A DNA stretch of 37,475 bases, taken from a virus (lineage: Duplodnaviria > Heunggongvirae > Uroviricota > Caudoviricetes). Location of the stretch: the IMG/VR virus record IMGVR_UViG_3300026512_000004, positions 84,653-122,127 of that record, one strand, 5' to 3'. Within the stretch, counting starts at the first letter, position 1. The number at the start of each line of letters is the position of its first letter. This document shows, one piece after another, positions 3,891-33,381 of the stretch. The position numbers were made by a program, and so were the translations under genes. The notes beneath the pieces were generated by a model. That model did not search any database. It worked only from the letters and a program-made list of their open reading frames with translations, and had not been told where the DNA came from.

Positions 3891-4283
3891 CTACTTATTC
3901 TTCTTCCTCTCTCCAAGCTTTAAGCCAAGGCGTTTAGCAATTGTACTCCCCAAGTATGCTGACCCAGCAGTTAAAGCTCCACCAGCTAATCCACCAGTCA
4001 GTCCGCCAAGCATTTCCTCAACGTCACCGCCGTGAGCCATTGCTGTACCGGCTGCTATACCATGTGCAGCACCTAGACCTATTGCTCCTCCAACATGACC
4101 TAAACGCGCTTCATCTGCTTTCTTTAAATACTTCTGCCTCTCTTTTTGACTTTTTGCCTCGCCTGCTTTCTTTGCATAATATCCAGTCGCCCAAGGACCA
4201 AAAAGGAGTCCCATTACTTTCTCTTTCGTTCCCTCTTGTAATACTTTACTCTCTACCAAAATAATACGTCTTACCTGATACAT
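3891..4283 (-). CDS. Glycine-zipper small protein, putative internal head or ejection protein
   Basis: 130 aa with GxxxG-rich hydrophobic stretches (GGAIGLGAAHGIAAG, GGLTGGLAGGALTAG), basic flanks and an N-terminal ILVE leader. Confidence 0.6.
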   Translation of the reverse strand: MYQVRRIILVESKVLQEGTKEKVMGLLFGPWATGYYAKKAGEAKSQKERQKYLKKADEARLGHVGGAIGLGAAHGIAAGTAMAHGGDVEEMLGGLTGGLAGGALTAGSAYLGSTIAKRLGLKLGERKKNK

Positions 4284-5812: not shown

Positions 5813-5836
5813 ACCTCCTTTTCAAAATTTAAGCCT

Positions 5837-5883
5837 AAAAACGTACCCGACCAGGCAGTCACGAAGACCACCTAGTCGGGTAC
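5837..5883 (-). terminator. Intrinsic terminator after the major capsid gene
   Basis: Minus strand GTACCCGACTAGGTGGTC-TTCGT-GACTGCCTGGTCGGGTAC is an 18-bp stem with 3 G-U pairs, followed by GTTTTT. Confidence 0.85.
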
Positions 5884-5893
5884 TAAAACTAGA

Positions 5894-19713: not shown

Positions 19714-20451
19714 TTACGTTACAATTATATAGCGCAAGTCTTGTTCATCATCAACATCATAAATAATCTCAGGTAAATCATGTAAATGTTGTTCACCAGT
19801 TTTTGGCTTATCTTTTACAACAACAGGTGTTCTAGATAACGTTTCAGCTAACTGGTTGGAAACGGTTACATCTACTACACTTATTAACTTACTATACCAC
19901 ATCTTACGAGCATATGCACAAAAACACGCTGCCATAAACAAGTCGGATTTATATCCTTTTGGTATTTCAATATTGCCCTGATTATTACGACGAGCATTAA
20001 GCAACTGATTTTTCAAGTCTTGAGAACGTATAATAGACGGGTTGTCACAAACGTGTTGGTAAAAGAGACTAGTCATAATGCCCTTTGTTTGACCGGTAGT
20101 TTGAACTCCATAGATACGTTCACCACGTTTCTCTTCGTAGTAAAGAAGAGGTTCAAATTCGGGGTCATCTTGAAACGACTCTACGACAGCTTGACCTATA
20201 GAATTACGCTCTATAGCTATTACAATATTGTCTCCAACTTGACTTCTTAGCCAAGAAACAGCATTCTTAGCAAGTTCTGCAAACTTGTGTAAAGATCCAA
20301 TACGTCCAAAAGCTTCTGCTACTTGTTTAAATTCACGGAAAGTAAACACTTCTATGGCACAAAGCGCACCGTTGACAGAAGCAGCTGTGTCAATACCGAC
20401 GATATAATAGTCAGTAGGATCAAAACTATCCTCAAAAACAGCTAAGCGCAT
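19714..20451 (-). CDS. Terminase large subunit, C-terminal RNase H-fold nuclease half
   Basis: YYIVGIDTA (first Asp), IAIERNSIGQAV, GVQTTGQTK, KSDLFMA. Confidence 0.9.
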   Translation of the reverse strand: MRLAVFEDSFDPTDYYIVGIDTAASVNGALCAIEVFTFREFKQVAEAFGRIGSLHKFAELAKNAVSWLRSQVGDNIVIAIERNSIGQAVVESFQDDPEFEPLLYYEEKRGERIYGVQTTGQTKGIMTSLFYQHVCDNPSIIRSQDLKNQLLNARRNNQGNIEIPKGYKSDLFMAACFCAYARKMWYSKLISVVDVTVSNQLAETLSRTPVVVKDKPKTGEQHLHDLPEIIYDVDDEQDLRYIIVT

Positions 20452-20477
20452 ACTATAGATATTTGTATCTAAATAAC

Positions 20478-20638
20478 ATCCCTGCGGCCCTCAAGACTGG
20501 TGGCCCGGCACCGGTCTGACCTGGAAAACCGGGATTCCAGGTCAAGAGGGTTACCCGTTACCACACCAACTATCTAAACACGTAGGGCGGTTGTAAAAAT
20601 CGTGTGGTAACGGGGGACGCAGGGATCTTTTTGTTTTT
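20478..20638 (+). ncRNA. Candidate structured non-coding RNA (149 nt plus U-rich tail) with kissing-loop potential
   Basis: Stems P1 20478-86/20618-26 (9 bp), P2 20487-92/20546-51, P3 20494-502/20509-17, P4 20518-26/20535-43 and P5 20554-66/20602-14 (13 bp). Non-Watson-Crick positions are G-U on the + strand; followed by CTTTTTGTTTTT. Confidence 0.75.
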
Positions 20639-20715
20639 ATAATCTGATGCTACTATAATTTCTTTTCGAAAAATATCGGTACAGAAATCGACCCAAACTA
20701 GTTAACTCTTTTTCG

Positions 20716-21702
20716 CTACGTTTCAACTTCACTCAAATTCACATAAAACTTCGGACTTTCGGGTTTTATTGCTTTCAAAACATCATCAGGAAATACACAC
20801 TCAGTAGACGCTCTAAACTCTAAATCTAACTCCTGAGCAATAGCACGCTCGTCCCAGTTTAACTCACGACACTGTTCTAAATACCACTGTTCGTCTTTCT
20901 CAGGATCTTCAGACCAATGATATTTAATGCGGATAAAACCATTCTTCAACTCAGAAGAAACAGCCTCCTGATACGCTTGCATGTAGTCAGGGCGTAATAA
21001 ATCACTATCACCTGCAAATACGTAAGAATCGTCAATTGCATTTTCCCACATCTGATAAAACCACTTACCAGTACCTTCTACACCATTAGGCGTTGAAGAC
21101 AAGAGAATAAAATAAGGATAGTTGTAATGTTTAGCTTGTTCTCTGGCACGAGAAAGTGCAGGTTGCGCCGCAGTATAAGCTTCATGAATTCCACGAATAA
21201 AAGCAGCCTCATCTATATAAAGAACAGTACCAGTTAAACCACGTGCTAATTGTTCAGGCGGTGTATTAGAAGAAGGGTAAAAAATGGAGAGACGTGATCC
21301 ATGAGCAAAATCAATATAGTGTTTGATGTTAGGGTCGGATTTTAGAGGTATCTTTAACCACGGCGGTAAGTGATTATAGGCAAATTTAACCTTCTCTATG
21401 TTGTCGTATGCAGTTGACTTACGGTAATTAATAATAACAGCAAGAGTACCAGGATAGAAAAGACATGCCCATAAGAGTAAACCCGCCGCTATAGTAGATT
21501 TGCCCAATTGACGTGAAGCCATTAGAATAACACGGTGAAAAATAAGACATGCTCGTACTGTTCGTCTAAGCTTAGTATGCATTAGAGACAAATCATAACG
21601 TCGTGGATGATAAAGTTCACTAAAGTGAAAGTAGTTGTTTATAAAGTAGAAAGGCGATTTGCGACACTTATACCACTCAAGAAGAATTTGCTTTTTGTCC
21701 AT
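20716..21702 (-). CDS. Terminase large subunit, N-terminal ATPase half
   Basis: EWYKCRKSPFYFINNY, Walker A ASRQLGKST, Walker B VLYIDEAAF, motif III LSSTPNG, AQELDLEF; stops at TAG before the nuclease domain. Confidence 0.92.
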   Translation of the reverse strand: MDKKQILLEWYKCRKSPFYFINNYFHFSELYHPRRYDLSLMHTKLRRTVRACLIFHRVILMASRQLGKSTIAAGLLLWACLFYPGTLAVIINYRKSTAYDNIEKVKFAYNHLPPWLKIPLKSDPNIKHYIDFAHGSRLSIFYPSSNTPPEQLARGLTGTVLYIDEAAFIRGIHEAYTAAQPALSRAREQAKHYNYPYFILLSSTPNGVEGTGKWFYQMWENAIDDSYVFAGDSDLLRPDYMQAYQEAVSSELKNGFIRIKYHWSEDPEKDEQWYLEQCRELNWDERAIAQELDLEFRASTECVFPDDVLKAIKPESPKFYVNLSEVET

Positions 21703-21767: not shown

Positions 21768-22079
21768 CTAATCGTTAAACTCTTTCTCAAGGTCCTCAAG
21801 TTTGCGAATATTTTCAGCATACTTAGTCAATTCATCAGGATTAACGCCTTTTCTTTCCAACTCCTGATGTAGTTTACCAACTTCTTGTCTCAATTTTTCA
21901 TACTCACGAAACTTCTCTTTCATCTCCGCTTTACCAGCTCTATGACCAAAATAAGATCCGCCTAAGAATCCTGCAACACCGCCTAAAGTCATACCTGTTT
22001 TTAATGTAGAACCTTGTGGAGCATAAGTTATTGTTTGACCCGATGTCTGTTCAATAAGTAGCTTATAAACCTGAAACAT
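21768..22079 (-). CDS. Glycine-zipper small protein, putative internal head protein
   Basis: MFQVYKLLIE leader, TGMTLGGVAGFLGGSYFG segment, charged coiled-coil tail. Confidence 0.6.
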   Translation of the reverse strand: MFQVYKLLIEQTSGQTITYAPQGSTLKTGMTLGGVAGFLGGSYFGHRAGKAEMKEKFREYEKLRQEVGKLHQELERKGVNPDELTKYAENIRKLEDLEKEFND

Positions 22080-22103: not shown

Positions 22104-22688
22104 ATGTTTAGAAAAATTGTTCTTATTACACTTATAACGATAACAACTTTTCTATTAGGTGTTGGTACAGGCATTTTATACTACGTACATACATATAAGC
22201 CTAAAATTATCAGAACAGTATGTGCGACAAACAAAAAATCCAAAAAGGATGTGGAGGAAAAACTATACAAAACAGCACTAAAATACGCACATATATCAGT
22301 CACAGAAGACATGGTTAAACAAATAGTTCACGAATGTTTAAAATACCGAGAAGGTAAACTCTTGCTAGCAATGGCTATTGTGGAAACAAATCTACGACCT
22401 TGGATGATTAACGGTGCAAGAAAATACGAAAATCAAGCGTGGGGACTATTACAAATCAAACCGTATTTATGGAAAGACAAATTGATTAAACAAGGGATAA
22501 TTAGTAAACCAAGAGATTTATTCGACTTCAAAAAGAATATTGCTGCTGCTCATTATATATTAAAAGAAATGTACAATCGTGCTGGTAACTGGTACGACGC
22601 ATTGTACCTATACTGTGGAAAATCTAGAAAATATGCTAACAAAGTTTTACGTATCTATGGAGAATTAACCATAACACTGGACAATTAG
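22104..22688 (+). CDS. Lytic transglycosylase (SLT family) with N-terminal transmembrane anchor
   Basis: AMAIVETN (catalytic Glu), AWGLLQIKP, KKNIAAAHYIL, ALYLYCG; hydrophobic residues 5-26. Confidence 0.85.
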   Translation: MFRKIVLITLITITTFLLGVGTGILYYVHTYKPKIIRTVCATNKKSKKDVEEKLYKTALKYAHISVTEDMVKQIVHECLKYREGKLLLAMAIVETNLRPWMINGARKYENQAWGLLQIKPYLWKDKLIKQGIISKPRDLFDFKKNIAAAHYILKEMYNRAGNWYDALYLYCGKSRKYANKVLRIYGELTITLDN

Positions 22689-22696
22689 ACAGAAGA

Positions 22697-22726
22697 TGCG
22701 GGACCAAAACGTCCCGCACTCTTTTT
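22697..22726 (+). terminator. Intrinsic terminator after the transglycosylase gene
   Basis: TGCGGGAC-CAAAAC-GTCCCGCA perfect 8-bp stem followed by CTCTTTTT. Confidence 0.85.
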
Positions 22727-22729
22727 GGC

Positions 22730-22936
22730 TTATTGTTTACAACATTCCTCAAGTTGTAGTATATAATGTAACAGTTCAGCTGTATCTTCTTTATCCAAAC
22801 AAATACCGCCCTTATCGTTCTGCCAAGGGTGCAGAATAGGTTTAGCTGGAAGTACCGGTGTTGGTCTCGGTCTTGCGCAACTCACTACCAAAATACTCAG
22901 CAAACTCATGAGCAGGATCTTCACGTATCTGCTCAT
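22730..22936 (-). CDS. Outer-membrane spanin (Rz1-like lipoprotein)
   Basis: Revised start MSRYVKILLMSLLSILVVSC with GGAGG RBS, lipobox Cys, Pro-rich RPRPTPVLPAKP and extra cysteines; starts inside the upstream ORF. Confidence 0.8.
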   Translation of the reverse strand: MSRYVKILLMSLLSILVVSCARPRPTPVLPAKPILHPWQNDKGGICLDKEDTAELLHYILQLEECCKQ

Positions 22937-23039
22937 ATCGCTCCTCCAACTTGTGTTCCCTGTACCACTGGTACGCCTTCCCGAGAATATCACTTAATCT
23001 GATCAAAAGTGTCGCTATAGCAGAGATGTTGCTAAACAT
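22842..23039 (-). CDS. Putative inner-membrane spanin (Rz-like), very short
   Basis: Revised start MFSNISAIATLLIRLSDILG then a charged helix; overlaps the lipoprotein gene in another frame. Confidence 0.55.
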   Translation of the reverse strand: MFSNISAIATLLIRLSDILGKAYQWYREHKLEERYEQIREDPAHEFAEYFGSELRKTETNTGTSS

Positions 23040-23043
23040 CGCC

Positions 23044-23217
23044 TTACTTCTTAGAAAGGTCAACAACTACTTTATTCTCTATACCAAGTGACTTCACTAC
23101 TTCTTCGACGATTTCAAGTATTTCCTTAACTGTAATCTTTTTATCCTCCGTTACCATGCCCAACTTAGTAACTACCGCAGTTATAATAGCCATAATTGCA
23201 GTGATGTCATACCTCAT
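23044..23217 (-). CDS. 57-aa membrane-associated protein in the lysis cassette (missed by the ORF track)
   Basis: MRYDITAIMAIITAVVTKLGMVTEDKKITVKEILEIVEEVVKSLGIENKVVVDLSKK, with an AAAGGAGG RBS. Confidence 0.7.
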   Translation of the reverse strand: MRYDITAIMAIITAVVTKLGMVTEDKKITVKEILEIVEEVVKSLGIENKVVVDLSKK

Positions 23218-23226
23218 CGTCTACAC

Positions 23227-23707
23227 CTCCTTTAAACTAGTTGTTCTCGTATTATTACTTACTATTCTTTAAGTAGAGATTGTGGAAGAAAGGTTACGAA
23301 AGCGAACCCTAAATATCAAATACGAACTACTTTTAACAGATTACTCACTAAGTACGTCGCCTTCTGGAACTGATTCAGCTACCAAATTTTCAGCATCTTC
23401 AGGTACAGGTTCAACAACAGGTTCTACCTGCTCCTCAACATGTTCAGCAGTCAAATCTTCGGCTTTCTCAGGTACTGGTTCTGTCGTCAAATCTACTACT
23501 TTTTCTTTACGTTTTTTGTGATGCTTTCTACTATGATGTTTTTTATGATGATGTTTTTTCTTTTTAGATGTTTCAGATAACAACTGTTTCTCAGTAAAAT
23601 ACAGTACTCGATTACATGCTGTACAAATATACCTACCGTCTAACTGCTTTAATGGTCCAAAACAGAAAGGACACTTCATATAACCACTCCTTTAAACTAA
23701 TTGTTCT
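23227..23707 (-). repeat. Two 21-nt near-identical upstream elements (23227-23247 and 23687-23707)
   Basis: Minus strand AGAACAACTAGTTTAAAGGAG versus AGAACAATTAGTTTAAAGGAG, 20/21 identical, each ending in the RBS. Confidence 0.8.
23341..23679 (-). CDS. Zinc-ribbon protein with Lys/His-rich and acidic repeat tail
   Basis: CPFC...CTAC, KKKKHHHKKHHSRKHHKKRKEK, repeated EPVPE(K/D)AE(D/N)L(T/V)AE; AAAGGAG RBS. Confidence 0.75.
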   Translation of the reverse strand: MKCPFCFGPLKQLDGRYICTACNRVLYFTEKQLLSETSKKKKHHHKKHHSRKHHKKRKEKVVDLTTEPVPEKAEDLTAEHVEEQVEPVVEPVPEDAENLVAESVPEGDVLSE

Positions 23708-33281: not shown

Positions 33282-33311
33282 GTTATCAAAACCACTGGAT
33301 AATTATTAGTG

Positions 33312-33360
33312 AAAACGGCGCGGAACTAACAATATTACAAAACTTATATAGCCCGCGCCG
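33312..33360 (-). terminator. GC-rich hairpin with large AT loop, probable terminator or processing site
   Basis: CGGCGCGG/CCGCGCCG 8-bp stem extendable by GCTA/TAG, with T-runs on both sides on the minus strand. Confidence 0.6.
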
Positions 33361-33381
33361 ACAAAAAACTATAACAATTAA

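Follow-up and report, generated by a model that had tools for sequence, protein, structure and literature searches.

A candidate structured small RNA gene between the ATPase and nuclease cistrons of the large terminase in an uncultured giant phage

In lambdoid phages, neighbouring late genes can be separated by morons, which are independent promoter-gene-terminator units inserted between them (Hendrix, Juhala). A short cis-antisense RNA with its own promoter and terminator, OOP, is produced by phage lambda. Two further structured RNAs invite comparison with the locus treated here, namely the packaging RNA (pRNA) of phi29, whose family is included in Rfam (Phage_pRNA), and the Alu domain of SRP RNA, in which a conserved UGUNR U-turn linker lies between two small hairpins and the S domain is attached at the tip of helix 5. 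Jumbo phages are known to produce small RNAs that have start and stop sites of their own (PMC11512511), and those of the RNA polymerase-encoding phages 201phi2-1 (sRNA001-011) and phiKZ are mostly derived from 5' UTRs (PMC11512511, PMC8244752). Moreover, early promoters in each of the jumbo phages encoding RNA polymerases are marked by a conserved AT-rich box of ~10 nt near position -10 (reviewed in PMC7598289).

The locus under consideration belongs to an uncultured giant phage whose sample is labelled as a hydrothermal vent metagenome. The IMG/VR contig comprises 122 kb, which is estimated to be about half a genome, and the window, i.e., the whole stretch of DNA that was analysed, covers 37,475 nt of this record; coordinates refer to the window unless the contig is named. 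Two RNA polymerase beta paralogues (PF00562, 2.3e-37 and 7.6e-27) and a DFDGD catalytic motif are encoded in the contig. The large terminase is represented on the - strand by two cistrons, terL-N and terL-C, of which the former is colinear with residues 1 to ~330 of 564-574-aa homologues and the latter with their C-terminal part; joined end to end, both are colinear with the full-length TerL proteins. The enzyme is a T4-type TerL with a Terminase_6N ATPase and a separate nuclease half. The cistrons are separated by a spacer of 264 nt (20452-20715), which harbours the following features:

20716-21702, - strand: terL-N, large terminase ATPase half, 328 aa (PF03237 6.5e-14; phrog_2 1e-29)
19714-20451, - strand: terL-C, large terminase nuclease half, 245 aa (phrog_24361 terminase; homologue colinearity)
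20454-20464, + strand: promoter-like box TATAGATATTT, an exact 11-mer that ends 13 nt before P1
20465-20477, + strand: predicted 5' leader of ~13 nt, with its start put at ~20465-20469
20478-20626, + strand: folded body of 149 nt, in which P1 closes a three-way junction of P2 and P5
20478-20486 with 20618-20626, + strand: P1, 9 bp
20487-20492 with 20546-20551, + strand: P2, 6 bp with one G.U, bearing the hairpins P3 and P4
20494-20502 with 20509-20517, + strand: P3, 9 bp with one U.G; loop GCCCGG at 20503-20508
20518-20526 with 20535-20543, + strand: P4, 9 bp; loop AACCGGGA at 20527-20534
20494-20543, + strand: P3 and P4 together, twin 9-bp hairpins, directly abutting and with complementary loops
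20554-20566 with 20602-20614, + strand: P5, 13 bp
20567-20601, + strand: P5 tip, 35 nt, A-rich and variable (the earlier 'P6')
20627-20638, + strand: U-tract CUUUUUGUUUUU after P1, an intrinsic-terminator-like 3' end
20628-20632 and 20634-20638, + strand: T-run
20639-20715: AT-rich spacer from the RNA 3' end to the terL-N stop codon, variable and partly dispensable

A previous sequence-only reading of this DNA had described the element as a structured RNA lying antisense inside a split terminase. Its antisense orientation most likely stands, although its position inside a gene does not, as the spacer separates two distinct cistrons. A Shine-Dalgarno sequence is missing from terL-C and likewise from about half of the genes of this phage. 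The - strand of the spacer also contains a mini-ORF of 8 codons (20453-20479), which has the first two bases of its AUG within P1 and stops at a UAG 1 base ahead of the terL-C AUG; this could be a termination-reinitiation arrangement or chance.

With regard to the fold, the helices P1-P5 and the T-run were recovered at the coordinates originally proposed. Both strands fold strongly, the + strand more so: its minimum free energy amounts to -83 kcal/mol (z -7.79, equalled by 0 of 200 shuffles) versus -76 kcal/mol (z -6.40) for the - strand. The element constitutes the top GC peak of the 122-kb contig, reaching 57% compared to a mean of 37% (sd 3.7). The GC content is 63% in the stems and 47% at unpaired positions, which on the + strand consist of 37% A and 16% U. 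Since the stems are GC-rich and the unpaired parts lie nearer to the phage composition, the pattern fits in-place selection for stem stability and not the import of GC-rich DNA. The second-highest GC peak of the contig (3959-4108 of the window, 55%) falls within a 130-aa ORF at 3891-4283.

The loops of P3 and P4 proved complementary as claimed, with CCCGG (20504-20508) and CCGGG (20529-20533) allowing for five consecutive G-C pairs. Two random loops, 6 and 8 nt long, would offer a run of 5 or more contiguous Watson-Crick pairs with a P of 0.004-0.007 (~0.006), and the complementarity is unlikely to be due to chance. A coaxial kiss of 5 bp between both loops within one molecule appears sterically implausible, as the last base of P3 (20517) directly adjoins the first base of P4 (20518), leaving 0 nt between the hairpins. 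Intermolecular pairing or side-by-side tertiary contacts of the two loops are possible. Likewise, the weaker inner helix formerly termed P6 finds no support as a conserved helix, given that it sits in the most variable part of the element, with indels at 20581, 20585 and 20601.

Searches for known families gave no match, and the element is absent from Rfam. At the gathering threshold nothing was found in the window or in the other 92 kb of the contig, and at E<=10 a stretch of 501 nt (20300-20800) and one of 174 nt (20472-20645) yielded generic hairpin noise only, with no match to SRP, pRNA, group I/II or HEARO/RAGATH models. A tRNA/tmRNA scan found none, the gap had no blastn match among 50,697 phage records, and an exact 22-mer of P4 had none in IMG/VR. 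A covariance model built from the element as a single sequence (R1) recovered only the element itself when run over the entire contig, inclusive of the window, and over 60 related loci (394 kb), and nothing from a related 61-kb viral contig. The element is a real orphan structured RNA candidate, well delimited and located on the + strand, and would represent a new RNA family within a known kind, the small RNAs of jumbo phages (PMC11512511, PMC8244752).

The functional strand of the element is most likely the + strand, opposite to the terminase. This had been proposed on the basis of G.U pairs and the U-rich tail, and is corroborated by a strand-specific promoter-like box upstream. The non-canonical pairs in P1-P5 number two, both of which are G.U on the + strand and turn into A.C on the - strand, so that the G.U argument comprises 2 positions, or 4 if the unconserved tip is counted. 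The stronger fold of the + strand and the A-richness of its junction and loop bases point the same way. The box TATAGATATTT occurs in six exact copies on the + strand of the 122-kb contig and in none on the - strand, with ~0.2 expected per strand; when up to one mismatch is tolerated, 11 copies on + stand against 3 on -. The other copies and two TACAGATATTT variants are mostly intergenic and positioned just 5' of + strand genes. Most copies reside within the block of + strand non-structural genes, usually in the order terminator, box and gene start, while one is situated inside an ORF as called, 3 nt ahead of an internal ATG. The late - strand block contains just two + genes (contig 62009-62815; window 22104-22688), and these too have the box in front, one as an exact copy and the other as a TACAGATATTT variant. 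The strand-specific box, which reads aAC-TA(T/C)AGATATTT, is found on the + strand at contig positions 20729, 34730, 47631, 48724, 53190 and 61751 and at window positions 22079 and 20454. At three copies an ATG follows 0-3 nt after the box, which places the start of transcription just 3' of it. The box is probably a promoter class of the phage RNA polymerase that serves the + strand (non-structural) genes of this lineage. The short distance of 0-3 nt to the ATG at these three sites moreover suggests leaderless mRNAs. A sigma-70 scan detected no + strand promoter near the element, which is uninformative because the phage possesses its own RNA polymerases; counts of the T4-late-type motif TATAAATA revealed no enrichment.

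At the opposite end, P1 followed by CUUUUUGUUUUU fits the pattern of the phage's own terminators, which consist of a GC hairpin and a subsequent (G/C)UUUUU (5813-5893 on -, 33282-33381 on -, and 22689-22730 on +), and does so on the + strand only. A terminator arising from a long-range helix that closes 140 nt would be unusual, since the other terminators of the phage are simple hairpins. The predicted + strand transcript contains no ATG. Two further stretches of this genome deserve mention. In contig 53150-53400, a terminator and a promoter box are followed by ~190 nt up to the next gene, which has a ribosome-binding site; a long leader is one option for this stretch, a further small transcript the other. 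In addition, 652 nt of the window without a long ORF (22689-23340), located 3' of the + strand SLT-domain gene, open with the terminator of that gene and fold on the + strand with a z of ~-3.9.

Given the box, the terminator pattern and the ATG-less interval, the spacer is most economically read as an ncRNA gene with its own promoter and terminator. We regard it as somewhat probable that it constitutes a self-contained, non-coding transcription unit of the + strand, an 'RNA moron' composed of promoter box, leader with folded body, and intrinsic terminator. What is found at the locus is a promoter-like motif on the 5' side (motif evidence), a terminator-like 3' end and the absence of the element from the closest relative (L012, see below). 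The product would most likely be an ncRNA of ~165-170 nt without an ORF, antisense to the late operon. Transcription would proceed from the box at 20454-20464 through a leader of ~13 nt and the body at 20478-20626 to the terminator made of P1 and the U-tract, ending at ~20638. The unit would have been placed between the cistrons of a terminase gene already split in the lineage, and the RNA may accumulate as a stable folded particle, made along with the non-structural (+ strand) gene class.

In comparison with the systems introduced above, the element resembles morons in having its own promoter-like box and terminator, in lying between genes that are adjacent in L012 and in a composition unlike that of its flanks. 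It differs from them in that its cargo is a structured ncRNA and not a protein gene, and in that the box belongs to the phage's own class and not to a host type. Similar to lambda OOP, it is short, has its own promoter and terminator and is oriented against the mRNA next to it, with which it could pair and undergo double-strand cleavage; it is, however, twice as long, adopts a closed multi-branch fold and overlaps the intercistronic spacer only. With the sRNAs of 201phi2-1 and phiKZ it shares the format of a short unit whose start is closely followed by a terminator, and the setting of a giant phage equipped with its own RNA polymerases, a likeness by description and not by sequence comparison, whereas its antisense orientation and far more extensive structure set it apart.

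The relation of the element to the divided terminase is clarified by the relatives of this phage. The closest one found is L012, an ENA contig of 625 nt with 75% identity in the nuclease half. In its positions 60-110, the ATPase ORF ends with TAA and, after 1 base, a GTG opens the nuclease ORF, with GGGAGG located 5 nt upstream of this GTG. The GTG start aligns with the ATG of terL-C in the window (V-K-LAVFE versus M-R-LAVFE); hence ATPase and nuclease are split at the same residue in both phages, in L012 without promoter box and without element. These features indicate that the terminase of L012 is truly a two-gene, translationally coupled enzyme. Since the split occurs there without an insert, the lineage indeed encodes its terminase as two polypeptides and splicing is not required. 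The split neither needs nor results from the RNA, which weakens a necessary link between the RNA and a split motor. Accordingly, the functional tie to the split terminase motor that had been suggested is not upheld. The split would thus be older than, or at least independent of, the 264-nt insert, and the position of the RNA unit within the terminase region is probably incidental or opportunistic. A search of the literature on split terminases and pRNA homologues yielded nothing directly relevant.

Beyond L012, the comparison covered terL relatives at 50 metagenome loci, with identities of no more than 46%. In nearly all of them, ATPase and nuclease are contiguous and in one frame at this junction, with ~1-kb gaps near it in two (L051 and L052), and the element is absent from all 50. 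The terL family is an insertion hot spot, with recurrent sites at ATPase residues 69, 138 and 161 and at nuclease residues 26 and 161 (L002:3411-3656; L004:1641-1899 and 2443-2570; L003:4066-5010; and many of L015-L064). Those tested are group I introns: L002 carries one of 111.8 bits between ATPase residues 138 and 139, and in L003 and L004 an intron at nuclease residue 26 bears a 212-aa ORF, the group I match in L004 amounting to 51 bits. In terL of a further relative (L010:2600-2620), the conserved NQELDL motif has an in-frame TAA in place of its glutamate, which may reflect a pseudogene, a sequencing error or recoding.

Readings of the insert as a device that restores one continuous terminase were tried and rejected. 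The group I intron model (RF00028) gave no match at E<=10, with the introns of L002 and L004 serving as positive controls. Nor is there a fused gene in the insert-free relative L012, which has two separate ORFs at this point. Read-through with TAG recoded fails as the frame still stops at a TAA inside the element, and for translational bypass the take-off and landing codons do not match.

Information on natural variation was obtained from the contigs of four DNA runs of two further studies, compared over 19714-21702. The element is present in all runs covering the site, in the same lineage and mostly at 95-99% identity; no empty-site variant was seen in these four runs, and no contig joins across the element. 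In one haplotype, X2, the left 366 nt (353 coding plus the start of the spacer) show 12 substitutions and one deletion, and the first 100 nt of the element one substitution, G20503A. This exchange affects the first base of the P3 loop, leaves CCCGG intact and is the only substitution in the P3/P4 part among the other samples. Over its 161 nt, the element of X2 carries 1-2 substitutions, compared to 5 substitutions along with 2 indels over 103 nt of AT-rich spacers. The element is therefore marginally less variable than the flanking spacers (P ~0.03 as a rough estimate) and shows no difference to the coding flanks. The spacer at 20639-20715 shows 3 substitutions, insertions of 1-2 nt and a variant with a 50-nt deletion (20633-20682) in the other samples; the latter lacks most of the right spacer and keeps CUUUUU. 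The promoter core ATAGATAT is unchanged in the variants, with changes at 20463, 20464 and 20469 just after the core. For the tip of P5, the same samples yielded two alleles side by side, the second of which, contained in a contig piece of 62 nt, exhibits 6 substitutions and 6 gap letters over ~35 nt. This tip (20567-20601) differs ~ten times more than nearby synonymous sites. In summary, the variants demonstrate persistence and mild constraint, not covariation, and no homologue at intermediate divergence was found.

As for the function of such an RNA, our best guess is a cis-antisense or a protein-binding small RNA, the scaffold being about as likely as the antisense role. The predicted RNA is perfectly complementary to the intercistronic terL-N/terL-C mRNA, which itself folds into mirror-image hairpins. 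Owing to this complementarity, cis-antisense pairing would be the simplest mode of action, although the predicted RNA stops 18 nt short of the terL-C start codon. The mechanism, purely inferred, might start with pairing at the loops of P3, P4 and P5 and lead to duplex-dependent cleavage or to masking; as with lambda OOP RNA, the level or the timing of nuclease-half expression would be adjusted in this way. Alternatively, the RNA could act in trans as a protein-binding scaffold whose two equal hairpins present CCGG loops, a role that its closed multi-branch fold with GC-reinforced stems would suit about equally well.

The same structure might instead operate on the opposite strand, as a cis-acting element of the late - strand mRNA between the terminase cistrons, whether as a processing site, as a 5'/3' stabiliser or by partial termination that determines the nuclease:ATPase ratio. 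The strong fold of the - strand (-76 kcal/mol, z -6.4), the position exactly between cistrons that are translationally coupled in L012 and a terL-C devoid of a Shine-Dalgarno sequence are in line with such a role. It is nevertheless unlikely, since the two wobbles become A.C mismatches on the - strand, including one halfway along P3, the structure is not followed by a U-run there, about half of the phage's genes lack a Shine-Dalgarno sequence anyway, and the + promoter box and + U-tract are left unexplained. An even lower probability is assigned to a selfish miniature mobile element with terminal inverted repeats of 9 bp, for instance a gene-less derivative of the IS200/IS605 or IS607 type that has kept an omega-RNA scaffold. 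The arms of P1 are indeed perfect 9-bp inverted repeats at a sharp GC boundary, the element is missing from the nearest relative, L012, and miniature copies of the IS607 type have been noted in the same genome (contig 51337-51592 and 61774-62001). Yet the element shares no sequence similarity with these copies, it was found in a single copy by R1 across the 122-kb contig, the 60 related loci and the related 61-kb viral contig, no HEARO or RAGATH motif was matched in Rfam, an empty site is lacking among four other samples, and a resident gene is the more likely reading in view of the native phage promoter box on its 5' side.

The remaining alternatives draw on the shape of the RNA and on the packaging genes around it. 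Similar in size to phi29 pRNA, the element likewise combines a terminal helix and a three-way junction with two loops that are complementary to each other, and it might form dimers or rings by reciprocal intermolecular pairing of P3 and P4 loops as a motor part in a T4-type phage with separate ATPase and nuclease. The five G-C pairs between the loops (P ~0.006), the presumed inability to pair coaxially within one molecule, which favours the intermolecular mode, and the location of the gene between the terminase halves speak for this notion. It is scarcely probable all the same: there is no covariance-model match in Rfam at E<=10, L012 has the same split without the RNA, a T4-type TerL with a nuclease half is unlike phi29-type motors, and the loops are placed differently, on abutting hairpins of a sub-junction versus the bulge loop and hairpin loop of pRNA. 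Membership in the pRNA family is thus not supported, and the same holds for the SRP Alu domain, to which the element had also been likened. A stand-alone SRP-Alu-like RNA, considered jointly with a signal at the DNA level such as a pac site, an origin or a cruciform/ssDNA structure, is very improbable. The nesting order of five helices, P1[P2[P3][P4]][P5], corresponds to H1[H2[H3][H4]][H5] of archaeal/Bacillus SRP RNA, and the two small hairpins show loop-loop complementarity in both. In contrast to the Alu domain, both hairpins of the element have 9 bp, the potential loop pairs number 5 versus 2-3, the UGUNR U-turn linker expected between the hairpins has no room, with 0 nt separating P3 from P4, an S domain is absent, with the tip of P5 being a variable A-rich loop of 35 nt, and no SRP model matched at E<=10. 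Packaging genes are close by, as would suit a DNA-level signal; however, neither nested multi-branch pairing nor G.T pairs confined to one strand are needed by a dsDNA cruciform, and the ssDNA/cruciform option is unlikely.

If the + strand unit is transcribed as predicted, an uncultured giant vent phage with its own RNA polymerases would possess a small RNA gene that has clean borders and a high degree of structure and founds a new family. Very few small RNAs have been described from giant phages of this kind, and none is known to have an assigned function. Besides, the locus documents a terminase truly encoded as separate ATPase and nuclease genes and provides a candidate promoter consensus for this phage lineage, aAC-TAyAGATATTT. 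The complementary loops of the twin hairpins predict a Mg-dependent dimerisation that would be abolished by loop mutations and, should the pRNA-like reading be true, the RNA would represent a second, independent invention of a pRNA-like motor RNA.
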